Positions 1 to 59,263 are shown, counted from the stretch's first letter. The stretch is DNA of 64,000 bases from Candidatus Aenigmatarchaeota archaeon (GCA_043824495.1 JBDRSV010000024.1:91056-155055), one strand, 5' to 3'. Numbers and translations: made by a program. Notes: generated by a model from the sequence alone, not told the origin.

Positions 1-767
1 TTTTCTATCCCAACCACTTTTCTATGCTGGGCGACATCCAAGTAAAAGGCGCCGTAAATGCTATTCCGAAAACGGCTACAGCAGAAATTTGGGTGGCATA
101 TCTCGATTCGAACGGAATCGAAGAGAGACTACGTCCCATCAGATCCGAGCTGAAAAAGGAATTTGCATCAAGCGATTCCAATCTCGCGATCATATTCAGG
201 TCTAGTTCTCGGACTGAGTTTATGGCAGACGAAGTGGCGCATGATGTGATCAATTTTCTCCTGGAGATGCCAGACGGTGTCATTAGCATGTCACTTGATC
301 TGGAGGATGTTCCATACACATCCTCGAATGTTGGAGTCGTGAAAATCGAAAACGACTCTCTGGTTGTGGAAATATTGTCCCGATCCTTCTCTGATGACGA
401 TCTTTCCTGTATGAAAATGGAGATCGATCGCATCTGCCAGAGTCACAGTGCCACTGTAGAGTTCCCTGTAGAATCTTCAGGTTGGGAACCAAACCCTGAC
501 TCATATCTCCTTCAGGTCGCGCAAAAAACATGGGGTGAATGCGTTGGTGAGAATCTCAAACTTGTGGCAGTTCACGCAGGGTTGGAAGCTGGCGCAATTC
601 AAAACCGATGTGAAATCCTGTTTCCTAACAGGATAATGGACGTCATCTCACTTGGCCCCCAAATCGAGAAATCACACACATCAGATGAGAGAGCGTCCAT
701 CACATCCGTCGTCCAACTCTACAATTTCATGAAAGTTTTCGTGCTCGAATTGGTACATGAAAACTGA
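1..767 (+). CDS. Xaa-His dipeptidase (PepD, peptidase M20C family), C-terminal ~255 aa. The ORF is open to the window start, so the 5' end is missing.
   Basis: The frame is open from position 3. The C-terminal motifs AVHAGLEAG...ISLGPQIEKSHTSDERASITSV resemble the PepD C-terminus (HAGLECG...GP.I...HSPDER). The region is GC-rich. Confidence 0.55.
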   Translation, partial: FYPNHFSMLGDIQVKGAVNAIPKTATAEIWVAYLDSNGIEERLRPIRSELKKEFASSDSNLAIIFRSSSRTEFMADEVAHDVINFLLEMPDGVISMSLDLEDVPYTSSNVGVVKIENDSLVVEILSRSFSDDDLSCMKMEIDRICQSHSATVEFPVESSGWEPNPDSYLLQVAQKTWGECVGENLKLVAVHAGLEAGAIQNRCEILFPNRIMDVISLGPQIEKSHTSDERASITSVVQLYNFMKVFVLELVHEN

Positions 768-867
768 TTGAGGTCTGTAGTGAATCACGTAGAAAAAAAG
801 GAACAGAAGAGAATGTTAATTTTTTCAAATCAAGCAGCGAACAACAAAGTTCGCTCAGAAAACTGAG

Positions 868-2388
868 GTGATTTTCATGACTCAACAGGAAGCCCTCACA
901 AGGCTTACAAAACTCTGGGGAAAGGCTGCACTTCTCGATTCTTGTGGCCAGCTTCTGGGATGGGACGAACGAGTTTACATGCCCAGAAAGGGTGCAAAAC
1001 ATCGCGCAGATCAGCTTGCCATGGTGGCGGGAATGGTGCATGAACTCCAGGTTGATCCCAGAATCGGTGATCTTCTGGGTGCAATCAGCGGAAGTGATCT
1101 GGTTCGCGACCCGAGTTCAGACGCTGACGTCATCGTCCGCGAAATCGGCCGGGCTCACTACCGGCTGGTGAAAATGCCGCAATCGCTGGTCGAAGAGATC
1201 ACGCGCGTCACTACGCTCGCCCAGGGTGCGTGGGGCGAGGCGCGCGCCAACTCCGACTTCAAGTCGTTCAAGCCATGGCTGGAGAAAGTCATCGCACTGA
1301 AGAAGCAGGAAGCCGAAGCCGTCGGGTACAAAGACGATCCATACGATGCCATGCTCGATGTTTACGAGCCGGGCGCAACGGTCACCTCAATCGACGAGAT
1401 CTTCGCCAAGAACCGTGAAGAACTCGTGATGCTCCTCGATAAGATCAAAGGCTCGGGCAAAGGCCCCGACACCACGATCATCACCCGTGAATATCCAATC
1501 GAAGCACAGAAGACATTCGGTCACGAGGGCGCTGCCGCAATCGGTTTCGACTTCGAGCGCGGTCGTCTCGATATCACGACCCACCCCTTTTGCGCCGGCA
1601 TCGGCCCCGGCGATACGCGCATCACCACTCGTTACGATGTCCATCATTTCCCCGGCGCGTTCTTCGGTATACTGCACGAGGCCGGACACGGTATCTACGA
1701 CCAATGTCTGCCCGATGACAAGTTTGGCAGTCCGCTGGGTGAGTATATCTCGCTCGGTATCCACGAGTCGCAGTCGCGCATGTGGGAAAATATGGTCGGA
1801 CGCTCACGCGCCTTCTGGACACGCATGTATCCCAAAGCGCAGAAGGCATTCCCCAAAGCGTTAGGCGATGTTCCGGTTGACGCGTTCTATTGGGCGATCA
1901 ACGACGTCCGTCCGTCGTTCATCCGTGTCGAAGCCGACGAGGCCACTTACAACCTGCACATTCTGCTGCGTTTCGAAATGGAGCGCGCGTTCTTCTCGGG
2001 TGACTTGAAGGTCGATGACATCCCGGGCGCCTGGAACGAGAAATTCAAATCATACTTCGGCATCACCCCGCCCAATGACGCGCAGGGCTGCATGCAGGAC
2101 GTTCACTGGAGCGCGGGACTGGTTGGCTATTTCCCGACCTACGCACTTGGCAATCTCTACTCTGCGCAGTTCTTCGCCAAAGCCAACGAGGATCTCGGCG
2201 ACCTCCACGCCCAATTCGCCAAGGGCGAGTTCGCACCGCTGAAGAAGTGGCTGCAAGACAACATCCACAGCCACGGCCGCCGCTATCTCGCATGCGAGCT
2301 GGTCGAACGTGTCACCGGCAAGCCGCTCGGCTCCGAAGCGGTGATGGCGTACATGAACAAGAAGTTCGGTGAACTCTACGGCTTCTGA
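868..2388 (+). CDS. Carboxypeptidase Taq-like metallopeptidase (M32 family)
   Basis: HEAGHGIYDQ carries the HEXXH zinc site, and HESQSRMWEN is present, as in the Thermus carboxypeptidase Taq family. Length ~500 aa, GC-rich. Confidence 0.85.
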   Translation: MIFMTQQEALTRLTKLWGKAALLDSCGQLLGWDERVYMPRKGAKHRADQLAMVAGMVHELQVDPRIGDLLGAISGSDLVRDPSSDADVIVREIGRAHYRLVKMPQSLVEEITRVTTLAQGAWGEARANSDFKSFKPWLEKVIALKKQEAEAVGYKDDPYDAMLDVYEPGATVTSIDEIFAKNREELVMLLDKIKGSGKGPDTTIITREYPIEAQKTFGHEGAAAIGFDFERGRLDITTHPFCAGIGPGDTRITTRYDVHHFPGAFFGILHEAGHGIYDQCLPDDKFGSPLGEYISLGIHESQSRMWENMVGRSRAFWTRMYPKAQKAFPKALGDVPVDAFYWAINDVRPSFIRVEADEATYNLHILLRFEMERAFFSGDLKVDDIPGAWNEKFKSYFGITPPNDAQGCMQDVHWSAGLVGYFPTYALGNLYSAQFFAKANEDLGDLHAQFAKGEFAPLKKWLQDNIHSHGRRYLACELVERVTGKPLGSEAVMAYMNKKFGELYGF

Positions 2389-2539
2389 GAAGTACAATAC
2401 ACCGAATAAACCAGAGTCACTAAAACCCGATAACCTTTAATCCCAGTGGCTAGTAGTGTCGGTCGCTGGGCTGTGGTTCGAGGGAGTTCGCCACAAGAGG
2501 CTCGATGTTCAAGGAGACTGGACTCGAAAGGTTGACAAC

Positions 2540-2947
2540 ATGATGAGACGCATGATTTTCTTGTTGCTGTCGCTTCTGCTGGTGATCAGTTGCTCAGACT
2601 CGGATACTTCAGACGGTTTCTTCCCAAGTCTTGACGAGCAGTATGCTCAGGGTCTGGGAATGTCTTCTGACAAACCATTTCAGGGATTTTATGATCTTAG
2701 TAGTGGATGCAAGATCATACCTGGTGGTCATGTCGAAATTTGCTGCAGAATCCAAGGCGGTCTTAGTCTGGCTGTCAAGGACGCAGTGAATCGCTCCGAT
2801 CGACTAAAAATAGAATTCGGTGGTATCGAGAGCGTCTTATTCGAATCTGGTCAGACAGAAGACACCTTGCGATTGACGGCGATTTCCGAAAAACACCGCG
2901 AGAAAAGGTTGTACATTGTGGTGGTGAACAGTGCTGTGGGGACATAG
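2540..2947 (+). CDS. Putative lipoprotein (hypothetical)
   Basis: MMRRMIFLLLSLLLVISCSDS is a signal peptide with a lipobox Cys. GC-rich, bacterial-style. Confidence 0.5.
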   Translation: MMRRMIFLLLSLLLVISCSDSDTSDGFFPSLDEQYAQGLGMSSDKPFQGFYDLSSGCKIIPGGHVEICCRIQGGLSLAVKDAVNRSDRLKIEFGGIESVLFESGQTEDTLRLTAISEKHREKRLYIVVVNSAVGT

Positions 2948-3009
2948 GTTCTCGCCGCGAATCCAAACAGGTATTCAAGAAGAGTCAATTCCTTCTGCCT
3001 GTTTTTAAT

Positions 3010-3030
3010 TTGTCTAATTAAAGGGATATA
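3010..3030 (-). repeat. Junction motif copy 1 (TTGTCTAATTAAAGGGATATA), at the right edge of a GC-rich block
   Basis: Inverse orientation of the 21-bp motif that recurs at 17661, 20177, 36287 and 56969. A hairpin precedes it on the GC side (AAACAGG...CCTGTTT, 2970-3008). Confidence 0.6.
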
Positions 3031-15171: not shown

Positions 15172-15315
15172 ACCCCCTTGACATCACCAAGGAATGAACA
15201 GGATATAAAGACCATACCGAACAAAAGTGAACAATCATGTTATATCCCTCTAATTAGACAATATAAAACAATCAGGTGCCGAGTGCACACCTAATTGTCC
15301 TTGCCAATCCTCTTC

Positions 15316-16422
15316 TCATCTCAGCTTCAAAAACGCTATATGAGGTGCAGGCAGCCACTTGACTAACGATTCAGTCCAAGAGAAAGACCATTTCAGCTTC
15401 TTCTTCATCTCGTGAACCTTCATACATTTCACCGAGACTAGATTCCAGTTCAGGATGCCGAAAGCTGTGCCCAAGAGACCACCGACAAGCATAACGAAGC
15501 CCTGTCCTACAAGATCCATTCCGGCGGAGGAAACGAGAAATTTGTAAGCGAGAAATCCGCCCAAGACTCCGTCAACTGCACACAACACTCTCTGGAAACA
15601 GTGAACCATCTTGATGATGTTCCAGATAAACTGACCGATAAATGTGAGGACCACCGAGATGCACACCAAGACAACGAAAATGACGGTCAGTGCAGTGAGA
15701 ATTGGGTACCAGACAGAAAGTAGAAGCAAACTGAAGAGAATGTATCCCATCGCGTTGAGATACCCGAGTTTTATTTCTCGGCGGTTCTTCTCCTCAAGGA
15801 AATACCTCCTTCTTAACACACCGATGTCGTATTTTTGGTCCGTGTGTCTGCTTATTCCGAGAGCCTCCCCAATACTCTTATAGTTGTACAAAACGTCTTC
15901 CCCGCTAGCGTCTTTCTTATCGACCATCATGAAAGGATAGAAGAACCTTCCGCGATCACGACTTCCAACAAAAGCGAGGAAAGAAAGAACGCCGGAAAAG
16001 ATCACAACACAGGCACCAGAGAGCGCCAACAGAAGAATGCTGCTGAGAGCGAGTTGAAGGATGTTCAGTGTTTCAGCATCTGCGAAAAGACCGGAAAATA
16101 TGTGATGTGCTGGCCACAAGCCGAGCACAAGACTCGGAAAAAGGAACGGGTGTGGCTTCGAGCATAACCAGTCCTTGGCTTTTCCGTAGTTGTCTCTGAT
16201 ATAAAACGGCCAAGTTCCGATATCATCCAACATCTCTCCGAGCATCACTTGGATCGCTTTGGCCACCTCACGGAGGTCGTAACCAAAATAACCAGCTGCT
16301 CCGCCGGCCAGGAAAGCAGCAACCCACATGTACAACTTGTCCGGCATCAGCCACATGGCAGTTGCACAGAACACGATGCCTCCAATGAAGCATCCGATTC
16401 CGATCTTCATCCAATCTTTCAT
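15316..16422 (-). CDS. Multi-pass membrane protein (hypothetical)
   Basis: Several hydrophobic helices. GC is intermediate (~47%). Confidence 0.5.
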   Translation of the reverse strand: MKDWMKIGIGCFIGGIVFCATAMWLMPDKLYMWVAAFLAGGAAGYFGYDLREVAKAIQVMLGEMLDDIGTWPFYIRDNYGKAKDWLCSKPHPFLFPSLVLGLWPAHHIFSGLFADAETLNILQLALSSILLLALSGACVVIFSGVLSFLAFVGSRDRGRFFYPFMMVDKKDASGEDVLYNYKSIGEALGISRHTDQKYDIGVLRRRYFLEEKNRREIKLGYLNAMGYILFSLLLLSVWYPILTALTVIFVVLVCISVVLTFIGQFIWNIIKMVHCFQRVLCAVDGVLGGFLAYKFLVSSAGMDLVGQGFVMLVGGLLGTAFGILNWNLVSVKCMKVHEMKKKLKWSFSWTESLVKWLPAPHIAFLKLR

Positions 16423-16489
16423 GGCGAAAATCTCCTTCTCGTTGTATTTCTTTGTTTATAGTTATCGTCCTAGAATTAATTCAAAACAA

Positions 16490-16996
16490 TCATATCTGCA
16501 AAGGTTCAAGCAGATACATCAGACTTCGGTCTCGTAATTCTGTCCTCTTATAAGGAGGGAGATCTATGAGACAAAGACTGGAAATACTCACGTGCATGGT
16601 TTGATACTTGGTTTCGTCTGCTTGGTACATTCCCGTAAAGATTATATTATTCAGGACAAACCCGGAAACTACTGTCCAGATCCAGAATGCCATCCATCCA
16701 TCGTACAAGAAGACGCTGGCAATCGCTGAAATGATTGCACCCACTGCGAGAACACCTACCTCAAAGAGAAGCATCGTAAAGATATCTCCCACGGGGTCGT
16801 TTTTGTCCTCTTCCCACCAATCCTCCATGACGAGTTCGTGGATAATCATGTCAATGAGATTCTGCCTGTTCTGCATTTTCTCGTGGTAGGCTATGAAACG
16901 AGTTGGTTGACGAATGTTGTGCCAGATGATCAATCCAATTGGCACCCAGATGACTGCTGTAGTGACAAGCAGCCAGAGAACTACTCTAGTTTCCAT
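16490..16996 (-). CDS. Membrane protein (hypothetical)
   Basis: Probable start METRVVLWLLVTTAVIW, with several TM segments. Confidence 0.45.
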   Translation of the reverse strand: METRVVLWLLVTTAVIWVPIGLIIWHNIRQPTRFIAYHEKMQNRQNLIDMIIHELVMEDWWEEDKNDPVGDIFTMLLFEVGVLAVGAIISAIASVFLYDGWMAFWIWTVVSGFVLNNIIFTGMYQADETKYQTMHVSISSLCLIDLPPYKRTELRDRSLMYLLEPLQI

Positions 16997-17234
16997 GTCC
17001 CCTCCAGGATTGATTGTTAGAAAAAATACTAGTATAATCACTCTCGTTAATTGACATTTCTGTCTTTCGTTGTCGTAGAGTATTGATTCCTAAATTACAG
17101 ATGATGACTTTACCTCGAACAAGAATCTTGTGCCAGGTGCTAAAAGTTGTCAGCGATGATAAATGTGGAACATGATGCATAGAATTTAACCTAAAATTTT
17201 ATAAACCTATACAAAACCTTTTTATACCTCTTAA

Positions 17235-17639
17235 TTGACAATATATAGTATGAAGAAAAAAGCAAAGAGGACCACAAAGAAAACAGTGAAAAAACCAGTC
17301 AAGAAAATAAAAATAGAAAAGAGAGTAACACCAAAACCAAAAAAAGAAGAGAAAATTAAATGTCCTTATTGTAAGAGTTCTAGAGTGGTTTGGAGAGGAT
17401 ATAGATACAACGAAAAGACTGACAAGCACTTAAGATTATGTAACAACTGTAAGAGAAAGTTCACAAAAAGAGACGAGTTCTTCCGTATGAGATTCGGTGA
17501 AGAAGAGATAAAAAGAGCTGTGGAATTATACAAGAAAGGTTATTCTTCTGCAGAAGTAGTTCAGAACCTGAAAAGAAATCATGGAATAAAGGTTTCAAGA
17601 TGGACTGTGATCTGTTGGCATAAGAGATACACTAAGTAA
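17235..17639 (+). CDS. Zinc-ribbon plus HTH protein. It resembles the N-terminal DNA-binding module of IS1 InsA and IS6-type transposases, but has no DDE domain.
   Basis: Lys-rich N-terminus, then CPYCKSSRVVWRGYRYNEKTDKHLRLCNNCKRKF (a C4 zinc ribbon), then an HTH-like region (GYSSAEVVQNLKRNHGIKVSRWTV). It ends 22 bp before junction motif copy 2. Confidence 0.5.
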   Translation: MTIYSMKKKAKRTTKKTVKKPVKKIKIEKRVTPKPKKEEKIKCPYCKSSRVVWRGYRYNEKTDKHLRLCNNCKRKFTKRDEFFRMRFGEEEIKRAVELYKKGYSSAEVVQNLKRNHGIKVSRWTVICWHKRYTK

Positions 17640-17660
17640 TTATTTTTTTTATCAGTTATT

Positions 17661-17681
17661 ATATCCCTTTAAATGGACAAT
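17661..17681 (+). repeat. Junction motif copy 2 (ATATCCCTTTAAATGGACAAT), at the left edge of a GC-rich block
   Basis: Forward orientation. A hairpin follows it on the GC side (GGGAGAGGTGCAG...CTGCACACTCTCCC). Confidence 0.6.
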
Positions 17682-17754
17682 GCAAAGGGAGAGGTGCAGT
17701 ATTCCACATCTGCACACTCTCCCACCACATCACCTTTTCAGGCTTTGCAGATTT

Positions 17755-19629
17755 TTACTTCAGAAGCGTCATCTTTTTGCTTTCCGTCAGGCTGGCCGTT
17801 TGCAACCGATAGAAGTACATACCGGACGCGACGGCCTTACCGTAGCGGTCGGTTCCGTCCCAGCTAACCTGATGTGTTCCTTCGGGCTGGGACCCGTTGA
17901 CGAGAGTGGCAACGTTGCGGCCGAGGATATCAAAGACCTCTAGCTTTACGTCTCCTCCCTGAGTCAACTGATAGGAAATCACGGTTCCGGCGTTGAAGGG
18001 GTTCGGGTAGTTCTGGTTCAAGCTGAATGATGTAGGAACGGCTCCTGTTGTCTTGTACGCGATGTTCAGCGTACCTAATGGAATCCACCCAGCCGGAACT
18101 GTCCGGCTGTTGTTGATCTCGTCAGCTATCGTTTTGGCCAACTCGTGATCGCCGAATGGATCGTCGATCAAGTTGTCGCAGTATGTTACCGCCTGTGACA
18201 CAGTCGCGCCGTCATCGCTAATCACAGCGGTTTGTGCCAGTTTGCCGCTAGCGACATTGAGTAGCAAAGCCATGAGTTGCTGTCTGGCTCGATCAATCAT
18301 GTCAACGCTGCCCTTGAGGTTCAGCAACGTCTTCGCGACTTCGAGCTTGTCTTCACAAAGATCCGACACGGGTGGATCGTACACGACGACCTCGTTCACT
18401 GCGTTCGAGTTGAAGTGGCCCGCGATGAGGTCGAGATAGCTACACAGAGTTGAAGCATCGATTTGCGCGCGGCCATTCCCACCAGTAGCGACGCCGACGT
18501 TGTGTTTCCAGAAGCCGATTGTTCGTTGTTCTCCAGCGTCTGACGGGCATCCCAATTCAAAGTCGATTTGGGCTGTGCCTTCACAATCGAGATCGACGGA
18601 CTGTTCGCTCGGAAATGCCGTATACCCGAGGGGGCCAACAAATGATACCATGTAGCTGGCCTCACCCGGGAGGTTCTCGAAATCGTAGTAACCGGCTTCA
18701 TCAGTCACAGCCGATTCTACAAGTACACCGGTGGCATCGAAGACATCAATCGTGATACCAAGAACAGAGCAGTCAGCACTCAGTGTGCCCTCAATTGCGG
18801 CGAAGCATTCTTCCTCTCCACCTCCGCATGCACACGTTCCATCTTCCACCTCAATGGCGGTGATGGTGTTGTCGTAGGCGTCCTTTGACCAGACGACGGT
18901 CAACGGCGCGAAGTTGATGACGTCGCATTCGAGATCCTCATCCCGACCACCGATCGTCGCGAAGTCACTGAGATACACGCCCGTTGTCTTGTCAATGCGA
19001 ACGATGTTGCCCAGACCATCGCGCCCGATGTAAAGGGTGTTCCCCGTCCCAACAATAACACCACTTATTCGATCCAGTGTATTGCCGGCCGCGTCGGTCG
19101 GATACAACGTTCCCAGATAGGCTCCCGAGCCCGCATCGAAGTGGTCAATGCCCGTTGATACATCATCGGAAACCCAGACACTGTTATCCGTCGCATCAAA
19201 GCCAATGCCGTCGATGAAACAGAAGCCCGGTGTTACCACAGAAAACTGGAAAGTGGCTACGCCGGTGGTGGGATCGATGAGATACACGTTCGCCGGACAT
19301 TCGTTGTCACTGCCTCCCCAGATCATGTTGCGCGTATTGTCCCATGCAATAGCGCCGATCGAAACTGGTGTGCCATCCGGTTTGAAAATGGAAACGAAGC
19401 CGAGATCGGTGCCGAATTTGTCTATCGAGTAGAGAGTTGGGTCGAAAGAGTTGGTGTAGAAAATCACACCATCACATCCAACTGCAACACCGATACCGAC
19501 ACCAGACGAGCTTGGAACAGGAACTGTGACGTTCGTGATGACATCACCGGGAGCTGCCATTGACGTAGCGGTGATAGCGGTGAAGAGGCAGAACACAACA
19601 AGCGCAGTGAAAGCTGTGAGACGCTTCAT
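17755..19629 (-). CDS. Large secreted protein with beta-propeller-like repeats, a carboxypeptidase-regulatory-like domain and a T9SS-type C-terminal sorting domain
   Basis: Signal peptide MKRLTAFTALVVFCLFTAITATSMA. The C-terminus NYPNPFN...VFDILGRNVATL...GMYFYRL matches the Por/T9SS C-terminal-domain consensus. GC-rich, bacterial (FCB-group-like). Confidence 0.7.
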   Translation of the reverse strand: MKRLTAFTALVVFCLFTAITATSMAAPGDVITNVTVPVPSSSGVGIGVAVGCDGVIFYTNSFDPTLYSIDKFGTDLGFVSIFKPDGTPVSIGAIAWDNTRNMIWGGSDNECPANVYLIDPTTGVATFQFSVVTPGFCFIDGIGFDATDNSVWVSDDVSTGIDHFDAGSGAYLGTLYPTDAAGNTLDRISGVIVGTGNTLYIGRDGLGNIVRIDKTTGVYLSDFATIGGRDEDLECDVINFAPLTVVWSKDAYDNTITAIEVEDGTCACGGGEEECFAAIEGTLSADCSVLGITIDVFDATGVLVESAVTDEAGYYDFENLPGEASYMVSFVGPLGYTAFPSEQSVDLDCEGTAQIDFELGCPSDAGEQRTIGFWKHNVGVATGGNGRAQIDASTLCSYLDLIAGHFNSNAVNEVVVYDPPVSDLCEDKLEVAKTLLNLKGSVDMIDRARQQLMALLLNVASGKLAQTAVISDDGATVSQAVTYCDNLIDDPFGDHELAKTIADEINNSRTVPAGWIPLGTLNIAYKTTGAVPTSFSLNQNYPNPFNAGTVISYQLTQGGDVKLEVFDILGRNVATLVNGSQPEGTHQVSWDGTDRYGKAVASGMYFYRLQTASLTESKKMTLLK

Positions 19630-20176
19630 GGATTTTTATTCCTTAGGTTGTGAGGGAAATATGACCCTCCGGGTTTGTTTTTCGATTAGTTTCTGATTGT
19701 TTGTCGTTTACCACGTTTCCAAGTTAAGGTCCGCGAATCGCTATTTTCATTGGCATCCTCTCTTTGGGTTAATGTTGTCCGCACAAATTGCGGGATTAAA
19801 AGAAGGAAAGACACAAAAGATAGAGTATGTCTTATGTAGACTGAGAGTAAAATCATTCGAAGAATAAAGCTAATACTATTAAAACAAACATGCATGTTTG
19901 ATGTGTTTCTTTTCATGTTTTTTGTGTTAGCCAATGTACCGTTTCTATGGTTAATTGGATTGATTGAGTTGCAATCAATACAAATTTAAATGATGTTCGA
20001 ATGAGTAGCATGATTTAAATTGTATACAAAAATTGACGTTGATTCATCGTCGTTTTTTTGTGTTTTGGTATTTTTTTTGATTCTAGCTTGTCGCTTTTGT
20101 CAAGTCTTTAACTCAAGTATATAGCTTACAGGTATTTAAATGTTTTCTAACACATTTTTTTTAATTTTCTTTCTTT

Positions 20177-20197
20177 TATCCCTTTAAATAGACATAT
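20177..20197 (+). repeat. Junction motif copy 3 (TATCCCTTTAAATAGACATAT), at the left edge of the ORF-free GC-rich region
   Basis: Forward orientation, followed by a weak AACGGGCG...CGCCCGTT inverted repeat with a ~38-nt loop. Confidence 0.55.
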
Positions 20198-23100
20198 AAA
20201 AAGGCAAACGGGCGAAGATTTGGAGCCAAACTCTTCTTGATGTCTCACCTCCGCCCGTTAAATGCCGTTGTCCGGCCTATCAATTTACCCGCCGGTTAGG
20301 TGAGCACATGTGCTCGTGTCCCAGAGGCGCATGTTTTCATGCCCTCCTTTGCCGGGTTCTTACGCGAACGTGCTGCTTGACCGAGATAATGTAGCTGCCA
20401 GATTCCCCACAACCTTGTTATTGGTGGAACCGCGACAGCGGTCGGTCCAGTCCGTATGCATCGTAGCCTCACTTGGTGAAGGACTGCGAATCAAGAGACG
20501 GGGATTCAGAAGAATCCCCGTCTCACGAGTTGACGGTTGGTACGAGATATATCAAAGGAAGTCTTTATGCCATTGGGTGCATTCCGAAACCTTTAGCCTC
20601 GTCCGTCTCCGAGGGATCCTATCAAAGGTTTCATAAAGGAAATTTCATGGACCTCGTTACGATAGGATCGGAGTGGCGTAAAGCCACGGCCAGAACCTCG
20701 AGGTCCCCCAGGATAAGATCACCGTTTGAATATGAGTCAGCGGTGAACGTAAGGGTGCTGGCGATTCTTCTTCGCATTCAAACCCTCCAGGGAACACTTC
20801 GTAATTTGTGTTGTCAGCGGCTGTTTACGAATCGGCGGTGATCGTTTCCACCACGGTACATGTCGGCGTGGTGACAAACGATGAAGAAGCGACTTCAAAA
20901 CGCGCGCGGCCATTGCTCGGCGGCGGCGAATGAGCCCAGGCATTGACGGCGGTCGCGGCGGTATTCATCCAGGAAGCGACCACTGGTGACCCGCGAAGGG
21001 TCGGTAATCGGTTCATAGAGCAAGCTCCATTTCTTCCGATAGGAAAATTCCAATCCACTTTACAAACTCTCGCCTAAACAGAAAGTATTGTCACATAACT
21101 TTCCGTCGCAAAAGAGAATGTGAAGAGGAAACAATTTCGTACACCTCGTCAAGAGATCGTCTCCATTTTCACCCTACATGGGCTAGGCGAGAGGATAGAC
21201 CAGTTGCTGATAGAGATGTAGAGGGAACCGTTTTCATCCGAAGATCTCTCCCGTCCCTCAGGGAGTAAGTTGCTCGTCCACCAGGTTCCCATACCAAGGG
21301 AGCTGGCAACTCTGCCATTCTCTCTATCCGACTCTCTGTTGTCATCGCCACTACGGCAACAACTCTTAGCCTATCCGGCGTAGGATTATGAGAGTGTAGA
21401 GCGAATTCCTCGTTCCATGTTTGTTCTGTATCGCTGCCTGTTATGATATCCAATCCTGAAAACGGGATTGGGTCAGCGGTATAAACAATACAGGAACCAT
21501 ATATGAGGTAGCAGAGTGTCATGATTCCCAGCATGACAACTCCTTACAAGGGCACATGGTTATATGGTAAATGCTCTCTCCGTCAACAAATCGTGCCCTC
21601 TAAGACATGTTTAGGAGAGAAAGGCGACAACTCATGAAGTGTTCTTCAGGTGGACCCGTCATCACTGTTATTGCGTTGACGGCCTTCTCCTTGACCCGGA
21701 CTTAGACGTGTGGCTTTCGGTGTTTTCGCGGCGCGTTTCTGCTGTTTTGGACTACGCTTCTTGTTGCTCGGAAGCCCGTCTCGGGCACCACCGTGACACG
21801 TCATGAAAGACCTCGTTTGTGAGGAGTTCAGTTCAAGCTTGTGCTGGAACTGTTTGGAACGAGGAATTGTTACTCTTTACGGCGAGCGATTGTGTGTCAT
21901 CGTAACTCCTTGACAATGGTTTCCACAAGCTCCAAAATAAAAAAGAGCTGTTGTTTTCAAATTCAGTTGGGAATCTCCTAGCCCGCCCCCAGAACTGACT
22001 AGAGGAGATCCCCAACTTTTGTACAGCGCACCCCGTGCATTGTTTTCAGGGTGGAGGGGCCCGGCGGTCAACTGAGCCCCTCACTGGACGAATCGGTCAC
22101 AGATAACATGTTACGCATTACCGACTCGAAATCTATGCCACGGCAGTAGATGGAAGTGGTCGCATCTACCGCCGGGCTTCACGACGTTGTGCATTTTGTC
22201 GCCTTCAGCCTTACACAACGCCGTTATTTCCCCACCCACAGGGAATTTAATATCGCGGGGCCTCACTCAGGAGACCCCGCTTCCGTTGGGTTTACTACCG
22301 AATTGTTCGGTAGCGTTCTTCCACGACAGACATACGCACATGCGCACGTCTTCATTTCTTTGAGGACCTACTCATCTCCGATTTGAGTAGGTCCTCGGCT
22401 CCCCACAACCCCCCGATCAGCACCGGGAATTTTTTTGAGGGGAAATCTGAGCAGATATCTCAGACTCCCCTCCCGTCAGGTCTACCGACCAGCACTTCCG
22501 GTTGGACGCCGGAAATTCTTTATTAGAAGGGGTTTCCCCTCTCCAAGAAACCCCTTCCTCTTCGGCGTAGCGCGTCTCACGCGCTTTAGTGCATCGATCC
22601 CCACCGATCAGGTAAAACCCTTGGATGGTTCTCTCCCCGAACCCCCACTGAAATATTTTGGAACCCCTCATAGATCCCCGTAATCTCCGAGAGGTTCCGA
22701 CAGCAGCACCATACAAATGGGACTACCGTGACAATCAAAAATACCGGAATCCACCGCGTCAGAAGAGGATTCCGGTATTCTACATCGCTGGTTGTGTTGA
22801 GAGCTTACCCCTTACTGGTCTTAACGAGTATGTTACGTCGGACTTCCTTTCACCAAATATACGGGTCACTACAGAATACCCGATCGATCCGCTTTGTTGT
22901 CTTAATCTCACCAGCGGATAGTGACGCGGTTACAGCCAGCGATTTCGCCTTTATACAACAGGCGTCTCCAAACCAAAATGGAAATTGGAGTTGTTGCTTC
23001 CACACTTCCGGATTTCCCCCTCCGGTAAACTCTAAGGTACTGATAGGTGACCGCTCGTGTTTCTTGTGTTCGCAATTGCCGATTGCATCAAGCTCTTCGT

Positions 23101-23949
23101 AGATCTAGATCTGGAAGTAATTAGCAAACGATCACAATAAACAGACAACTGGGAGAAGTCCATTTCTACCAGTACCTGGATTTTCTAACCCTCGGGAGGT
23201 GTGTACAAGCCTAAGCAGAGTTTGTCCTGTTGAATTGGCCCCGAGGGTAAGTGGCCTTCCGGAAGAGAATTGGTGAGGTCCTGTAACAGAACTCTATCTC
23301 ATTCCGGGGTAAAGCTCAAGGCACAGCCAGAAGGAGACGTATTACCTTGAGAAGTTGGTCTCCCGAGTGAAGAAATTCGAGATGTCCCATCGATGAAGGA
23401 CATCTCTTCTCCACTCGGGCTCATTCGTCAGCCTGGAAGGAGAAGTGCAAGAGTTTTCGCGCAATTACTCTCTCTCCTCCCGGGAAATTTATGACCTCCT
23501 GGTCCGAAACTTGTGCCGCGGTAAACCAGAAGGCGTAACTGCTAGGCTATGTGACGGCCACAGCAGTAGGGATCGAATCCAATACACGAAAGACAGCTAA
23601 GACTAACTCTGTCTCGTGTGGTTTACGAGTAAAATTCAGAAATCGATAGTCTTCGGCCTCTTCGAGGGAAACTGCTTAAGCGCTTAATTGCAGCGCGTTA
23701 TGTTTCCTGGTAAGTGACCTGTTCTCTAGGATGTACCGAAGGCTAACTTAGTTAGTCTCGGGAAATTCGCGTGTGATTGGTAGAAATGAAACATGAAATG
23801 TCCTTATATATAAATGTAATTTAATTACTTAAATAGGTTGATGGATAGCTTTAAAAAGGTACTATTAAAATTATTTTTTTGTGAAGGGATCGATATACCA
23901 AGTGCTTCCAAAAATAAAGAGTAGAAAAAAATAAGAGTGAAAAAAGCAA

Positions 23950-25992: not shown

Positions 25993-26515
25993 TAAAGATC
26001 TTTAAGATCTTATTTTCTGTTTGTAGTTGTTCCAGGAGCTCTCTTAGCTCTGTTTTTAATTCTAATCCATCTCTCCAAAAAAGAATATTTTCTTGTCTTT
26101 TTTCTTTTCTGAGAATAGAAACATCAAGTTTGAAATTTCTCTTTTCATCGATGTCTGTGATATGATTCATCATATCGTCTTTTTCTTCGATGTCTTCTTC
26201 AATTTCTTTTAAGAATGTTTTGTGGAGAACTTCTCTTTCTTTCATAGTGTTTTCAATTTCACTAACTCTTATTTGCAAGAATTCTACTTTATCGAATAAG
26301 CTTCCAATAACTAGAGGATCATCTCTTTTTAGAGCAGTGAGTTTACTTTCTTCAAATCTTGGCATTGATCTTTTCTTAATAATTTGAACTTCTCTAACTT
26401 CGGGTTCATCTAGATCAATCTCATCATGTCTAATTAAAGACTCACGTCTTCTCTTTTTTGTAATGTCTTCATACTCGTCAAGAGTTTTATAATAGGGTTC
26501 CATTAATCTGTCCAT
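25967..26515 (-). CDS. Coiled-coil protein, partner of the HerA-like ATPase
   Basis: Highly charged and heptad-rich (EIENTMKEREVLHKTFLKEIEEDIEEKDD...). Its stop overlaps the ATPase start, so the two form an operon. Confidence 0.5.
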   Translation of the reverse strand: MDRLMEPYYKTLDEYEDITKKRRRESLIRHDEIDLDEPEVREVQIIKKRSMPRFEESKLTALKRDDPLVIGSLFDKVEFLQIRVSEIENTMKEREVLHKTFLKEIEEDIEEKDDMMNHITDIDEKRNFKLDVSILRKEKRQENILFWRDGLELKTELRELLEQLQTENKILKIFNDLGGTND

Positions 26516-28942: not shown

Positions 28943-28983
28943 TCAACGGCTTGGAAACCAAGTCAAATCAACGACAATGAAAG

Positions 28984-34749: not shown

Positions 34750-34830
34750 GCGTGTAGTTATCATTCACACCCCGCCTGGATTCAATTCCAGGCGGGGTTG
34801 ATCATGAAATAAAGAGAAGGGGAGTGTACC

Positions 34831-35835
34831 ATGATAAAAATGTTTGGTAAACTGCTCTGCGGAGTTGCCATGGTTGTAGGCGGGTTGATCGCAGTGCTAG
34901 CGACGATCACTTTCTTCGCAGTCATTGGGAACATGGTAATCGATACTTACAAAATTGGCATGCATTTCTCTCCGTTGTTACCGACAGCCTTCATCAGCCT
35001 TTGGGTCGCCGCCGTCATGCTTTGGATTACCACCCTCGGCGCGAAAGGCCTCGGATGGTCGGTATCATGCCATTTGAAATTCAACATCGGTTACGGTTCC
35101 ATGCTGCTGGGAATCGTCGGCGTAATTGTGATCCTGGGATACTACACATATCTCTTCACCTTTGCTGACATCCCAGGACAACTGGTTGTCCTCAGTATTG
35201 ACGGTATGGAGACGTTCAGTCGGGTGGAAGTTCGTCTCATGAAAATCATGGATTTGGTGCCTCTACTATTCGCATCCATTTGCACCGGATTCACCGGACT
35301 GGCTCTCTGGTGGGGACGAATACAATCAATCCGGTTTCCGTTCTCCCGTTGGTTCGGAATCGCTGTCGCGATGATTCTTGTTATTGTCATGGCAGTGCCT
35401 GTTCTTGGTCAGGCCGATTCCACAGGCTTCACTGAGGCCAAGACCCATCTTTGTGGGATGCAGATGAATTATGCTGAATATTTCGGTGAGTTGTTCGCGG
35501 CGCGTTTCGCATCCCGGGAACTTGATATCAATATCTTCGATGCCGATGAAGAGTGGATGTGGAGAATGGTTGATTCAACATTCTACCGAAGGGATACACT
35601 CTTTGCTGTCAGAGACGGGTTCTCGTCGGTATTTAATATGGCCGAAGAGAAGGCCGAGCTTGTGGCCGCGACTGATCTGGCGAGAATTGTCGGGAAAATC
35701 AGGGGAATCCCGGAAGGTGAACGCGTTCCTTTAAGGTATTGTTTCCGTGGGGGACAGTTCATCAAGAAAGATACAAACAGAGGTTACCATGCGGTTGTAG
35801 TGCAGATTCTTCCGCTGTCTGAGAATCTGGAGTGA
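34831..35835 (+). CDS. Multi-pass membrane protein (hypothetical)
   Basis: At least six hydrophobic helices. SD GAAGGGGAG. Confidence 0.5.
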   Translation: MIKMFGKLLCGVAMVVGGLIAVLATITFFAVIGNMVIDTYKIGMHFSPLLPTAFISLWVAAVMLWITTLGAKGLGWSVSCHLKFNIGYGSMLLGIVGVIVILGYYTYLFTFADIPGQLVVLSIDGMETFSRVEVRLMKIMDLVPLLFASICTGFTGLALWWGRIQSIRFPFSRWFGIAVAMILVIVMAVPVLGQADSTGFTEAKTHLCGMQMNYAEYFGELFAARFASRELDINIFDADEEWMWRMVDSTFYRRDTLFAVRDGFSSVFNMAEEKAELVAATDLARIVGKIRGIPEGERVPLRYCFRGGQFIKKDTNRGYHAVVVQILPLSENLE

Positions 35836-35973
35836 AACCAACATTATCCTTTCAACATTTGATGGAGGACGGGTCATGAAACTAGTCTTAAATCGTAGGC
35901 ATCTTATAGATCCCGCCAGTGTCATTGGGCCACGCGTGAACTGGTTGTTCTCCTGAATGGCCAAGAGGTTCAG

Positions 35974-36222
35974 GTGCGTCCTATCGACCAGACGATAATT
36001 CTGATCGGACGCGATCCGGAATGTGACGTAATACTCGATAATCGCGCCGTCGACTTCTTCCATGCTCACATTGATTTCGGCGAGAATTTTGTAGTAATTG
36101 ACAACGTGTCACTCAACGGCACGTTTGTCAACGGAGAAAAGGTCGAGAAAGCGGTTCTCCGTCCTGGTGATGTGATCACAATAGCCAGGTATGAGATTCA
36201 CATCCGGTCCCTCCGGAAGTAG
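35974..36222 (+). CDS. FHA-domain protein, N-terminally truncated or frameshifted
   Basis: GRDPECDVILDNRAVDFFHAHIDF...DNVSLNGTFVNGEKV...PGDVITIARYEI is the FHA consensus. The FHA-like sequence continues upstream (ELVVLLNGQEVQV) with no start codon. MKLVLNRR... sits in a different frame at 35876-35953. Confidence 0.6.
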   Translation: MRPIDQTIILIGRDPECDVILDNRAVDFFHAHIDFGENFVVIDNVSLNGTFVNGEKVEKAVLRPGDVITIARYEIHIRSLRK

Positions 36223-36286
36223 ACGACGCGATGGTAGTCTTGTTCCAATTCCGTACAGGTGTTTACAAAATCTGTGCGGGATTTGT

Positions 36287-36308
36287 ATTGTCTAATTAAA
36301 GGGATATA
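36287..36308 (-). repeat. Junction motif copy 4 (ATTGTCTAATTAAAGGGATATA), at the right edge of a GC-rich block
   Basis: Inverse orientation, the same variant as copy 1. An 8-bp stem (CCGTACAG...CTGTGCGG) precedes it on the GC side. Confidence 0.6.
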
Positions 36309-56951: not shown

Positions 56952-56968
56952 TTTTTTATAACCTTCTA

Positions 56969-56989
56969 TATCCCTTTAAATAGACAATA
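56969..56989 (+). repeat. Junction motif copy 5 (ATATCCCTTTAAATAGACAAT), at the left edge of a GC-rich block
   Basis: Forward orientation, followed by the hairpin GGGGAAAGTGTGA...TCACACTTTTTCTCCCC. Confidence 0.6.
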
Positions 56990-57063
56990 TAAAGGGGAAA
57001 GTGTGATTGGTGGTCACACTTTTTCTCCCCTTGTAGCACCCGGAGAAGCTGCTCGCGTTGCAG

Positions 57064-57528
57064 TTAATCGTCGAGGTCGAGATCCTGAATGGGACCGTCT
57101 GCGGGATCGATCGCCTTGTCGGTACATGTGAACTCATTGCCGTGACCCTCACCGAAGTTGGCTCGGGCCGTGATCTGGAACGTGCCGTCTGTTGACGCCG
57201 CGGGGACAATTGTGGTAGGCGAAGTAACCGCGAAGAACATTGTGTCCTTGGACCCACTGGCAGGAGCAGGTTTGAACTCGATCGTTGTGTCGCTGTCGCC
57301 ATAGTCGAAGCGGGCAGCGGGAGCCAATGAGCGAGTTAAACTGCTACTGCGAAAGGCTTCAATGCCTCCGGACAAACCGAGGTCGATAGCCTTGTCCCTG
57401 GCGATCTTCTCGATTGTTGTGCTTCTTACGTCTACTTTTACATCATTCAGAACTGTGTCCCCGAACTTCAGGTTGATTTTAATGCTGTCGGCCACGATAC
57501 CCCTCCGTTTCTGCGTGATCAATGTCAC
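57064..57528 (-). CDS. Hypothetical protein
   Basis: Complete ORF, GC-rich, first of a three-gene minus-strand cluster. Confidence 0.45.
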   Translation of the reverse strand: MTLITQKRRGIVADSIKINLKFGDTVLNDVKVDVRSTTIEKIARDKAIDLGLSGGIEAFRSSSLTRSLAPAARFDYGDSDTTIEFKPAPASGSKDTMFFAVTSPTTIVPAASTDGTFQITARANFGEGHGNEFTCTDKAIDPADGPIQDLDLDD

Positions 57529-57536
57529 GTCTGTGA

Positions 57537-58082
57537 TTAGTCCTTCTCAGCCTTCTGAAGTTTCAGACAAATGGTCTCACCGTCAGTTGCGTGGTCGTAG
57601 TCAAATGTAGTCGCAAATTTGGCGCTCCCGATCTTGATTCGAGCGTGAATCTGACACTTCTTGGGAATACTCGGGAGAGTTATCTCCCCACGAATGATCG
57701 TAGAGCCGCCTTCAGTGTCCTCATCATCTATCTTGAAGTAGACGATGGTCCCATTCGGAGTTGCGATACAGTCATCGCCGTGGCATACTTCGGCTTTGAC
57801 GGTGACTGAAGCACGAACAAAGTCGAGATCGAAATCGGTGTTCCCATCAGCCGTGTCATAATCCAGACGTGCTTCGTACAACTCGCCGTCGATTGTTACG
57901 AATGCTTCAAGCGATCCAGCCGCGAGGACGCCCATTAAGACGATGATACCGTTTTCTTTCACGGTGGCACGATTTTCTTCGCTTGCGTCGCCTGCGTCAT
58001 TACCAAATAATACTGAGATGCCTTTTGGTATTAGCTCAGTATCTTCGTAATAGGCGGTCAGTTGAAGTGTCGTTTTATCCAT
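57537..58082 (-). CDS. Hypothetical protein
   Basis: Complete ORF, GC-rich. It is 8 bp from the downstream gene. Confidence 0.45.
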   Translation of the reverse strand: MDKTTLQLTAYYEDTELIPKGISVLFGNDAGDASEENRATVKENGIIVLMGVLAAGSLEAFVTIDGELYEARLDYDTADGNTDFDLDFVRASVTVKAEVCHGDDCIATPNGTIVYFKIDDEDTEGGSTIIRGEITLPSIPKKCQIHARIKIGSAKFATTFDYDHATDGETICLKLQKAEKD

Positions 58083-58127
58083 TTATCCTTTGCCCTCCTT
58101 GTATGGTTTGCCTGTTCCATATAGGCG

Positions 58128-59030
58128 TTATAAACTGACTGTCACAAGAATGTGGTGTGACTTGTCCCCATATTCACTTTGGCGCATTGGCAAGAGCATT
58201 ACTCTACCAATCTTGCCTCCTATATAGTACCAGGAGGATTTAACACCGAACTCGTATCCGCCTCCGAGAAGAAGGAGGTATTTCCCATGCTGCCAGGCAA
58301 ACGCCTTGTCAGCACCGATTCCAACATTTCCGGATTTCGTATCACCGAAGGTCTCAAAGCCCAGGCCGTGGAAGAGGCCAACAGAACTAGAGAAGACCCA
58401 TTTACCCTTTCTGAAGTTCTGGTAGGCATCGAATCGTGTAGCTTGAATTCTTGCAGATCTCAGAAAACCGAGAACTGATGATTCTTTGTGATTAAGTTTC
58501 CATTCAAACCTGGTTCCAAAGTCCAAGTCCCACATGTTCTGGGATGGTTCGGTGATCCATATGGGACCGCCAGGAATGTACTCGGTTCCGGGAGCAATGA
58601 AATTGACAGTTCTCGTTCTCACCCAGATTCTTCGAGCCCCGATAGCAAGTCGAAATTTTCCAGGAAGAACTCCGAGAGCAAACCGAATATTCGTCGTTGT
58701 GGCGATTTTTTGGAAGTCGGTCTGTGCAGGTGGTACGCCTTCTGATTGAGTGTAACCACCGAGACCCATTAGAGTAAAGCTAGTCTCGGTACCCAGTGGG
58801 CGGAGAAGGAACGGGAGCTTGTACGAGGCTCCAGATTCTATTACCCAGAAATCTGTCCGCGAACCATACATCCCGTCTGTTGGGGTCTTGAGAATGTAGG
58901 TGAAGACTGACGAGTTGTCGTAAATTGGTGGTGGTTTGGCATCCACTTTCACCGGAGACACTACCACCACAAACAGTGTCACTGCTGCGATGATGTTACG
59001 CATCGAGACCCTCGCGATAACTTTATGCAT
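58128..59030 (-). CDS. Secreted beta-rich protein, a putative outer-membrane beta-barrel (hypothetical)
   Basis: Signal peptide MRNIIAAVTLFVVVVSPVKVDA. The sequence alternates aromatic and hydrophobic residues as in an OM barrel. Bacterial-style. Confidence 0.45.
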   Translation of the reverse strand: MHKVIARVSMRNIIAAVTLFVVVVSPVKVDAKPPPIYDNSSVFTYILKTPTDGMYGSRTDFWVIESGASYKLPFLLRPLGTETSFTLMGLGGYTQSEGVPPAQTDFQKIATTTNIRFALGVLPGKFRLAIGARRIWVRTRTVNFIAPGTEYIPGGPIWITEPSQNMWDLDFGTRFEWKLNHKESSVLGFLRSARIQATRFDAYQNFRKGKWVFSSSVGLFHGLGFETFGDTKSGNVGIGADKAFAWQHGKYLLLLGGGYEFGVKSSWYYIGGKIGRVMLLPMRQSEYGDKSHHILVTVSL

Positions 59031-59263
59031 CGAAACCCCCTTGGCTGAACGCCGTGACCGAGTCTATAGAAATCTCTCTACTTCTATCTCAACACGAAAG
59101 ACGATTTACTTGACTTTCGTGATTAAGTGGTTACCTAAATACAAATACCAGCACTGAGATGAGATTAATCTTCTCAGATAAATGCTGGGTTAAAGGTGTG
59201 TTTAGTTGAAAAACATGAATATAGAGGATTCTTGATAATAAACTTTTAAAAAGTAGGTGAACC

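Follow-up and report, generated by a model that had tools for sequence, protein, structure and literature searches.

Foreign DNA blocks in a chromosomal segment of an Aenigmatarchaeota archaeon each abut a copy of one conserved, polar 27-bp motif

We have analyzed a contiguous stretch of 64,000 nucleotides from Candidatus Aenigmatarchaeota archaeon (GCA_043824495.1, JBDRSV010000024.1:91056-155055), hereafter called the window, always at its full length of 64 kb. AT-rich archaeal DNA is interrupted here by GC-rich blocks, and each block abuts on one side a copy of the same 27-bp motif. The source is groundwater from a depth of 345 m at the Aspo Hard Rock Laboratory, borehole SA2600A (metagenome run SRR26275509). 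The metagenome-assembled genomes (MAGs) of this run were built with MEGAHIT, and a matched metatranscriptome, SRR26275506, exists (PMC11484514).

A 1-kb sliding profile of the GC content runs at ~33-35% and is broken by stretches of 48-58%; at 200-nt resolution the transitions are abrupt. A preliminary description, made from the sequence alone, had listed five GC-rich blocks. Their coordinates hold essentially as given, with a GC content of 0.49-0.53 (~50%) against 0.33-0.35 (~34%) in the host DNA elsewhere; as an inventory the list was incomplete, a sixth foreign block at 15268-~17100 having been overlooked. Codon usage and k-mers, which the same description had proposed to compare, both separate the blocks from the host. 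The GC content at third codon positions (GC3) is 0.26 +/- 0.04 in host genes (range 0.19-0.35, n=20) and 0.49-0.70 in all block genes, i.e., the ranges do not overlap. GC-normalised tetranucleotide frequencies of blocks 1, 2, 4 and 5 correlate at 0.57-0.74 with each other and at 0.03-0.22 with the host. The same blocks correlate at 0.51-0.69 with a bacterial contig that bears a type IX secretion system (T9SS) protein, and at 0.10-0.57 with GC-rich Aenigmatarchaeota loci, while the values for the host versus other Aenigmatarchaeota, GC-rich ones included, are 0.42-0.83. Sites resembling Shine-Dalgarno (SD) sequences precede 16 of the 18 block genes versus 17 of 43 host genes. For the five coding blocks a foreign origin is supported by composition, by codon usage and by these SD sites. 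TTGACA-type (sigma-70) promoters, previously counted among the bacterial traits of the blocks, are not enriched (13 found, 11.2 expected).

There are six compositionally foreign inserts in the window, five intact gene cassettes and one non-coding block. Block 1 (1..3003, plus strand; GC 0.46-0.61, GC3 0.49-0.70) extends ~960 nt upstream of the window. On its plus strand are the C-terminus of an M20-like peptidase (24-767), an M32 carboxypeptidase (877-2388; Pfam M32, 594 bits) and a lipobox protein (2540-2947). The block is lodged between RNase P p29 and methyltransferase genes on one side and rpS17 on the other, and the ribosomal-protein cluster is normal thereafter (Logan contig L004). Block x (15268..17100, minus strand; GC 0.44-0.53, GC3 0.53-0.57) has two membrane-protein genes (15316-16422 and 16490-17041, both minus) and is absent from a relative, contig L031. 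Block 2 (17687..19830, minus strand; GC3 0.61) consists of the gene for a 624-aa surface protein with a T9SS tail (17755-19629, minus) and its GC-rich upstream region. Block 4 (27300..36281, plus strand) carries nine genes; their products are a lipoprotein, ORFans that are secreted or membrane-bound, and a small FHA protein (35974-36222, plus). Block 5 (56992..59150, minus strand) carries three ORFan genes (57064-57495, 57537-58082 and 58128-59030). The non-coding, hairpin-rich block 3 (20202..23790) is GC-rich and 3.6 kb long.

Bacterial hallmarks had been reported for these genes, and several are indeed present. Inspection shows the lipobox LLLVISC in the open reading frame (ORF) that starts at 2540 and LFLVSC in that starting at 27378. 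The strong SD sites AAGGAAGGAGA ahead of 28241 and 32758 are real as well, and they are part of a repeated element (repeat family D10). The repeat is a 30-nt SD-containing leader, present in two copies in block 4 (28206-28235 and 32723-32752). Block 4 has further regulatory repeats of its own: a 51-nt hairpin-plus-TTGACAAT element (29328-29378 and 30239-30289) ahead of two paralogous secreted-protein genes, and a ~60-nt hairpin repeat (31971-32031 and 32607-32668) on either side of a 154-aa gene. The T9SS C-terminal sorting domain of the protein encoded at 17755-19629 (minus) is confirmed by TIGR04183 (51.5 bits, cutoff 23; residues 541-620) and PF18962 (30.4 bits, cutoff 27). The same protein has a FlgD_ig match of 46 bits and an N-terminal Sec signal peptide, seen by inspection in MKRLTAFTALVVFCLFTAITATSMAAPG with no predictor used. 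Genes for the T9SS machinery (PorK/L/M/N, SprA, PorU/V) are not found among the Pfam-annotated genes of the ~70 kb available. Because the host is an archaeon and no T9SS machinery gene is present in these ~70 kb, the domain is a relic of bacterial ancestry and not a sign of T9SS function here.

How far does the bacterial label reach? The T9SS-tail protein has 211 homologues at 45-62% identity; those that bear a taxon name are from Zixibacteria. At 45% identity, the closest full-length relative resides on a contig together with UvrA, RuvA, RuvB, RuvC and further T9SS cargo, a genomic setting that is unambiguously bacterial. A bacterial ancestry of the Zixibacteria type, i.e., from the Fibrobacterota-Chlorobiota-Bacteroidota (FCB) group, is supported for at least one cassette. 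The M32 peptidase is at best 59% identical to unnamed metagenome proteins; the nearest named match is from Phycisphaerales (47%), and block 1 is loosely bacterial-leaning, not specifically FCB. The largest block 4 protein has no homologue among 5.8 billion proteins, and the block 4 proteins match no significant Pfam family apart from the small FHA protein. The block 5 proteins have no family match in the libraries scanned, including the product of 58128-59030, whose former designation as outer-membrane-barrel-like is thus unsupported. To see whether blocks 4 and 5 stem from phages or plasmids, a 454-aa and a 300-aa protein were compared by tblastn with collections of both, and no match was obtained. 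The protein searches thus uphold the proposed FCB/Bacteroidota-like donor for the T9SS protein and not for the other blocks. The bacterial label as such is firm for block 2 and loose for the M32 block, and it does not extend to the ORFans of block 4 or to the non-coding block 3. A bacterial partner organism is pure speculation.

The sharp block edges first noted at 3009, 17682, 20198, 36286 and 56990 all fall inside copies of one 27-bp motif, TTATATCCCTTTAAATAGACAATATAA, which a repeat search located at one edge of every block. The degenerate pattern TWTATCCCTYTAAWTRGACA has six matches in the window versus 0.00 expected from shuffles, and seven copies are seen when mismatches are allowed. With a position weight matrix (PWM) built from 28 instances, only these seven known sites reach 8 bits or more in the window. 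Six point into blocks: 3004..3030 (minus, 36.2 bits) into block 1, 15241..15267 (plus, 37.3 bits) into block x, 17660..17686 (plus, 35.6 bits) into block 2, 20175..20201 (plus, 33.1 bits) into block 3, 36282..36308 (minus, 38.8 bits; L031 has a copy at the syntenic position) into block 4, and 56967..56993 (plus, 38.9 bits) into block 5. The seventh, degenerate copy (17221..17247, plus, 22.2 bits) stands ahead of a gene discussed below. At six of the seven copies GC-rich DNA begins 0-5 nt past the 3' end of the motif.

The polarity is fixed. The motif is followed by an A-run, a hairpin and then the 3' ends of genes which converge on the motif; in five of five coding blocks of the window the genes run towards it. 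At four motif sites the GC content steps up by +0.19 to +0.23, all with the same polarity; steps of at least 0.15 occur at 2.8% of window positions. Hairpins within 60 nt inside the motif have a mean folding free energy of -14.7 versus -11.0 kcal/mol for controls (p = 0.009, n = 24). In block 1 the hairpin (2965..3004, minus) is directly inside the motif copy and terminator-like for the converging genes (ViennaRNA fold); its equivalents are at 15268-15298 (block x), 17687-17723 (block 2), 36251-36279 (block 4) and 56992-57032 (block 5). Several other identities of the motif and its surroundings were considered and dropped. The motif is not a dif/Xer-type site, being multi-copy and not palindromic beyond TATAT...ATATA. 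Candidates for a second, degenerate motif or a surrogate inverted repeat at the far block edges scored at background, and inspection revealed no target-site duplications around the inverted pair 20175/36282. A literature search for the motif string found no paper that contains it.

The AT-rich gene behind the degenerate copy (ABIJ92_04335; 17250..17639, plus) encodes a zinc (Zn)-ribbon/helix-turn-helix (HTH) protein with no catalytic domain. Its homologues are few (62-77% identity, ~95 aa) and each one inspected lies beside motif copies. Gene and motif are linked in L029, L031, L034, L039 and L043. The motif is located 3' of the gene in L031 and on both sides of it in L034; in L039 and L043 three copies surround the gene, including a back-to-back pair upstream. 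Among 12 family members the NCBIfam profiles transpos_IS6, transpos_IS1 and IS1_IS1595_Zn match 11, 10 and 10, respectively. At 21-37 bits these matches fall far short of the cutoffs, and the transpos_IS1 match covers profile positions 1-78 of 199. The family proteins (95-129 aa) comprise the N-terminal transposase module only; the DDE domain is not present. An AlphaFold model (pLDDT 72) yielded weak structure matches (E > 0.1), the HTH ones being to small terminases and to the DNA-binding domains of the Tc3, SETMAR and IstA transposases. An hhalign comparison with an E. coli InsA sequence aligned only the Zn-ribbon, at 11% probability. The link to the insertion sequence (IS) families IS6 and IS1 therefore rests on the NCBIfam profiles. 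To judge from them, the protein is derived from the DNA-binding N-terminus of IS6/IS1-type transposases, and we regard it as the candidate motif-binding protein. No description of such a boundary site together with a transposase-derived companion gene was found in the literature searched.

The position of this gene also bears on the nature of the motif. Its first in-frame ATG is at motif position 30-31 in the window (31), L034 and L039, which places the 5' TATAT of the motif at about -29 from the ATG. In clear cases the TATA-like box of host genes starts 27-33 nt before the start codon. Because this spacing is matched, the motif has the predicted geometry of a leaderless core promoter, and the putative transcription start at its inner edge would coincide with the onset of the variable DNA. 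It is not a general host promoter: those read AAAGC-TTTATAAA, and none has the 27-mer. Conversely, the motif is devoid of the purine-rich, AAAGC-type B recognition element (BRE) of host promoters. Taken together, the site resembles a repeat of the transposon-end type in which a core promoter would face inward.

The window is almost certainly not chimeric; we consider it an authentic chromosomal segment of an AT-rich archaeon of the Aenigmatarchaeota (DPANN). The Logan assembly of SRR26275509 is 100% identical over the aligned loci (window 17094-44749). Two Logan contigs, one reaching from 5.3 kb upstream of the window to 17112, the other from 17094 to past the window end, jointly cover the whole window and every junction (exact gene look-up, contig coordinates). 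The relative L031 shares 61-85% protein identity in core genes and is syntenic from the ribosomal-protein cluster through ArgRS, the Zn-ribbon gene and the operon of a HerA-like ATPase to the genes for myo-inositol-1-phosphate synthase (MIPS) and PadR. Every GC-rich block is a gap in the L031 alignment, and the host gene order resumes after each one. A repeat search and a comparison of the far block edges revealed no common repeat able to cause a misjoin. The two Logan contigs overlap by 19 nt at 17094-17112, ~110 nt before the motif copy at 17221 and at the far edge of block x; this break may be a graph branch caused by strain variation.

Exact-pattern scans located the motif in Aenigmatarchaeota and 'uncultured archaeon' MAGs with a local GC content of 37-62%. 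It is present in 19 metagenome contigs, about a dozen of which have the extended 27-mer, intergenic and followed by a hairpin. The adjoining gene converges on the motif in L011, L012, L013, L016, L017, L022, L024 and L029. In L011, a Black Sea MAG of 37% GC, a FEN1 gene is followed by the motif and a 600-nt GC-rich insert with a converging ORF. In L029, ArgRS and the Zn-ribbon/HTH gene are followed by five to six direct motif copies ~1 kb apart, with a hairpin at each; the units in between encode small membrane proteins or tRNAs, each on the opposite strand. Between ArgRS and the HerA-like ATPase of the window, four copies (15241, 17221, 17660 and 20175) stand in direct orientation; they represent the same locus in expanded form. 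Cassettes at other loci likewise encode envelope proteins.

A comparison with L031 displays what is kept and what is exchanged. The skeleton common to both is ArgRS, Zn-ribbon gene, motif (plus), X, HerA-like ATPase (minus), a 182-aa protein (minus), Y, motif (minus), Z, MIPS and PadR. The two genomes agree in motif positions and have unrelated DNA at X, Y and Z. At the position of block 4, L031 has an unrelated two-gene cassette. In addition, the window has block x plus a motif in the gap between ArgRS and the Zn-ribbon gene, and block 2 plus a motif in the gap between the latter and X. The nucleotide alignment of window and L031 ends at 17681, within the motif copy 17660-17686. Across the window, L031, L034 and L039 the motif occupies syntenic positions and the adjoining DNA, including the hairpin, is wholly different; adjacent DNA is replaced between relatives.

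Some further occurrences of the motif are recorded here. Back-to-back pairs with facing outer ends, 13-53 nt apart, are found in L016 (1773-1824), L039 (1284-1372) and L043 (2184-2232) and are reminiscent of abutted IS ends. In L005, a contig from an uncultured archaeon, a group II intron (4288-4579; RF02012, 63 bits, plus domain V-VI) is located ~3 kb from a direct motif pair. Group IIC introns target hairpins; the intron might be relevant to the motif or be a coincidence. An apparent strain variation at the motif, suggested by differing gene calls in L039/L041 versus L040/L042, was a gene-calling artefact, the sequences being identical. Viral contigs gave a single match, within a coding region of a contig of 29% GC, and it is apparently fortuitous.

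Between two inward-facing motif copies resides a conserved host core (23950..26515, minus). It consists of a HerA/FtsK-type ATPase (23950-25992, minus; Pfam DUF87, PADLOC HerA) and its 182-aa partner (25967-26515, minus). Orthologues of both are 56-68% identical in L031 and L034, i.e., the pair is conserved in three lineages. The best curated match of the ATPase is the DNA-translocating ATPase CedD of the Ced system (NF053655; 61 bits versus a cutoff of 600, E = 8e-17), and generic HerA families match as well. A Ced-type import system was not recognized here, CedD scoring below the cutoff and the partner membrane proteins not being identified. A HerA-like ATPase at a locus full of imported DNA is suggestive, not evidence. 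Upstream of the operon, at 26536-26589, a 57-nt stretch with AAAGC-TTTATAAA has kept 76-81% identity between genera; it is probably the promoter of the operon.

Next to this core, block 3 had been listed as a gene block. It is GC-rich as stated and it is not coding: no ORF exceeds 142 codons, a period-3 signal is confined to ~20.8-21.4 kb, and six-frame translations are junk-like. With the signal limited to one window of ~600 nt and with such translations, decayed genes, in the sense of recent pseudogenes, are unlikely. As an rRNA or a known large non-coding RNA it was likewise rejected, Rfam giving nothing at the gathering threshold or at E <= 1. The block contains several perfect 13-bp hairpins, and its mean fold z-score is -2.1 to -2.5 versus +0.2 to -1.7 for GC-matched coding controls. 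L031 (10330-12600) and L034 (10340-12820) have gene-poor counterparts of 2.1-2.3 kb, which separate the Zn-ribbon gene and its motif from a convergent HerA-like ATPase operon. Their fold z-scores are -1.4 to -3.1, somewhat stronger on the ATPase strand, with ~0 for the neighboring ATPase genes; sequence similarity among the three regions is absent even at word size 7. Block 3 and its counterparts are candidates for a fast-evolving long structured RNA or for accumulated hairpin elements, and the GC richness of block 3 need not mean foreign origin.

The remaining features of the window can be summarized briefly. The AT-rich DNA encodes archaeal informational genes as described earlier; S4e, the L7Ae family, S28e, L24e, Rpo3 and a diphthine-synthase-type TP_methylase were confirmed by Pfam on Logan gene models. 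The intron-bearing tRNA is a tRNA-His(GTG) with a 74-nt intron (11070-11236), directly upstream of ArgRS. Only ARAGORN with the intron option found it; it escaped both default ARAGORN and Rfam, the latter even at E <= 1. L029 has an intron-bearing tRNA at the matching position by ArgRS. Within the ribosomal-protein operon, inserted between rpL14 and rpL24, the window has a gene with a tRNA-binding domain (PF01588) and a small membrane-protein gene (3858-4561), both of host-like composition. An AT-rich defense and mobile island (36391-45444), absent from L031, is situated right outside the motif copy at 36282. It comprises a Cas4-like PD-(D/E)XK nuclease (36936-37589), a type IIG restriction-modification enzyme (39330-42056), a ParB-like PDC-M38A/PD-Lambda-5_A protein (42194-43213) and a DDE_Tnp_1 IS element (44028-45038). 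The MIPS gene (47035-49560) encodes 841 aa with an intein that contains a LAGLIDADG domain; the L031 orthologue has 360 aa and no intein.

What process accounts for this arrangement? The large bacterium-to-archaeon transfers envisaged at the outset are supported for part of the DNA. A random placement is not: because all blocks are tied to one conserved site, acquisition of foreign DNA is apparently a site-associated, systematic process. With moderate confidence we propose an IS-derived, motif-anchored platform for docking foreign DNA. Foreign DNA would dock beside pre-existing copies of the 27-bp site in an IS-derived, site-directed reaction, which would yield single cassettes as well as tandem arrays. 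Known parallels are the IS26 translocatable units, which go in beside an IS26 copy, and integron cassettes, which go in at attI/attC. Afterwards, the site and its presumed binding protein would bound the acquired genes or regulate transcription over them, possibly as an antisense promoter or an insulator. Site-directed docking is favored because a conserved site has a replaced or added inner neighbor and because each added unit comes with an extra copy of the site.

Several observations weigh against this proposal. Neither the 70 kb available nor the related loci that we inspected contain a recombinase, an integrase, a reverse transcriptase or a complete IS6/IS1 transposase. A solitary block has the site at one edge and not at the other; no block retains a motif remnant at its far edge (best PWM scores -14 to -26 bits, i.e., background). 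Target-site duplications are absent, and the blocks are unlike two-ended transposons or att-flanked islands. In L029 some motif-bounded units (3682-3836 and 5511-5679) carry native tRNA genes, and one of these tRNAs, with an intron, has its end 5 nt away from the motif; a motif is thus no proof of a foreign neighbor. No motif junction was seen to be polymorphic at the population level; in the one apparent case, L039 against L040, the sequences are identical. The word recent in the preliminary description calls for qualification: the blocks are unameliorated, yet no close donor is in the databases: the best matches are 45-62% identical and the block 4 protein tested is an ORFan. A very recent direct transfer from a sampled neighbor therefore fits poorly. 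The scope is narrow, i.e., one 64-kb window of a 172-kb contig. Finally, the motif contains a TATA-like sequence and could be purely regulatory.

The latter possibility deserves attention, although we consider it unlikely. The motif would be nothing but a core promoter, operator or insulator of a Zn-ribbon regulon, and the foreign DNA would have come untargeted; it would persist because insertion is tolerated there, or because antisense or insulating control renders foreign genes harmless. In favor of regulation, the Zn-ribbon gene of three lineages has its ATG at motif position 30-31, as would suit a leaderless core promoter with its transcription start at the inner edge of the motif. In L005 there are sense-oriented genes behind the motif, in L029 native tRNA genes border on it, and the A-run and hairpin beside it resemble the terminator of a converging gene. 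Such a function does not explain why, with seven sites among ~70 genes, every one of the six foreign blocks lies against a site, always in the same polarity and with a junction of 0-5 nt. Separate de novo origins of a 27-mer beside each insert are out of the question; it either was there before and was targeted, or it was copied. Besides, the BRE of clear host promoters (AAAGC-TTTATAAA) is missing, and tandem arrays with ~1-kb spacing are unusual for a plain operator.

Conceivably, the cassettes did not come straight from bacteria; they circulate in a motif-tagged pool among Aenigmatarchaeota, or plasmids and viruses, of varied GC content, and their bacterial ancestry is older. This we regard as improbable. 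Conservation of the motif in Aenigmatarchaeota of 37-62% GC, the lack of a close donor for any block and the envelope proteins encoded by cassettes at other loci are all compatible with a shared pool. Yet the tetranucleotides of blocks 1, 2, 4 and 5 are nearer to the bacterial T9SS contig than to GC-rich Aenigmatarchaeota, strong SD sites precede nearly all block genes, and a homologous cassette was not seen in another archaeon.

One may also reverse cause and effect. The 27-mer would then be a tiny mobile or copied element which inserts by stem-loops such as terminators and tRNA 3' ends, as group IIC introns and elements of the repetitive extragenic palindromic (REP) type do. Its association with foreign genes would follow since strong GC hairpins in an AT-rich genome occur mainly in foreign DNA. 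In line with this idea every copy outside the Zn-ribbon promoter is within a few bases of a hairpin, one copy in L029 is 5 nt away from the 3' end of a tRNA, and the far block edges have no motif. However, the motif is syntenic in the window, L031, L034 and L039 while its neighbors and hairpins differ, which favors a stable anchor; block 3 has many perfect hairpins and no internal motif copies; transposition machinery of this kind was not seen and is not known. Reversed causality thus is decidedly improbable.

A chimeric misassembly of archaeal and bacterial reads, raised in the preliminary description and seemingly favored by the abrupt composition switches, by a short repeat at one edge of each block and by the Logan break, is rejected as practically excluded because two different assemblers (Logan and MEGAHIT) agree identically over the aligned stretches, with the other junctions on the same two Logan contigs, and because the gene order flanking every block is that of L031; moreover, each of ~12 junctions would require a shared k-mer whereas exact identity between motif copies extends over 21 nt at most and the far edges have nothing in common, and an unrelated Black Sea MAG (L011) has the same motif-plus-GC-block architecture.

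How DPANN archaea gain bacterial-type genes in their reduced genomes is of general interest, since such transfers were, until now, inferred from single genes, without a mechanism. A phylum-wide, polar boundary site with a transposase-derived protein and arrays would provide a concrete, testable molecular handle. On the practical side, MAG contigs with alternating GC content are not necessarily chimeras, and composition-based decontamination should not discard them.

It is instructive to compare the locus with known systems. Inter-domain gene transfer into Aenigmarchaeota is documented at the level of gene trees, and bacterial transfers are regarded as mostly ancient (PMC8407114). Genomic islands of DPANN archaea resemble the window in foreign composition, in envelope and secreted cargo and in neighboring defense genes and an IS element; they differ in that they were not reported to have a phylum-wide boundary sequence of fixed polarity. 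A tRNA-targeting integrative element is not indicated in the window: there is no integrase, no block has direct repeats at its two borders, and the only tRNA of the window (11070-11236) lies away from the block edges.

A closer parallel is offered by translocatable units of the IS26/IS6 type. An IS6/IS1-type DNA-binding module is encoded at the window locus, direct copies of a short sequence separate unrelated cargo (15241/17221/17660/20175 and the L029 array), and new cargo is found directly beside an existing copy without target-site duplications. In IS1 and IS6 the terminal repeat binds the N-terminal domain of the transposase and carries an inward promoter; the motif and the Zn-ribbon protein may be the counterparts of such an end and its binding domain. 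The differences are equally clear. The repeat is a 27-bp site and not an IS of 820 bp, and it does not resemble the terminal repeats of IS6 or IS1; a DDE catalytic domain is missing; the cargo genes have a fixed orientation to the site, with a hairpin always abutting; and the locus has a fixed chromosomal place, with synteny between genera. Terminal inverted repeats with 8-9 bp target-site duplications, as in IS6 and IS1, are not present in the window. The sole inverted motif pair, 20175 (plus) and 36282 (minus), encloses 16 kb, including conserved host genes, and its flanks differ.

One-ended transposition units such as ISEcp1 and IS91/ISCR likewise have one conserved end with a promoter, variable foreign DNA and no second end. 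In these, however, a transposase gene adjoins the end and the promoter drives the cargo in sense; next to the motif there is no transposase gene, and the motif points antisense.

Integrons, which are known from archaea (Ghaly et al., 2022; PMC9668308), share more of the overall design. Cassettes of ~1 kb form arrays in which co-oriented ORFs are each followed by a site-like element (five to six in L029, four direct copies in the window). The element at the 3' end of the ORF joins a variable hairpin to a conserved sequence, and the arrays are plausible as a platform for cross-domain gene capture. Unlike attC with its paired R''/R' boxes, the 27-mer is asymmetric, one-sided and without RYYYAAC or GTTRRRY. 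Several cassettes of the window are multi-gene (up to 9 kb), solitary, scattered and in either orientation, and the promoter-like element by the site faces antisense to the cassette genes. IntI or other integrase families are not among the Pfam calls of the window, L029, L031 and L034 (with limited flanks), and attI was not seen.

A bolder reading goes beyond each of these systems, and we put it forward as a rather unlikely one. The locus may be an undescribed, IS-derived cross-domain capture platform in which a docking site with an inward promoter, a domesticated DNA-binding protein of transposase origin and possibly a Ced/HerA-like translocase with the hairpin-rich region would cooperate, foreign inserts, bacterial ones among them, being taken up in fixed orientation and transcribed antisense. 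If true, this would be a cross-domain cassette system which functionally stands between an integron and an antisense 'trap' locus.

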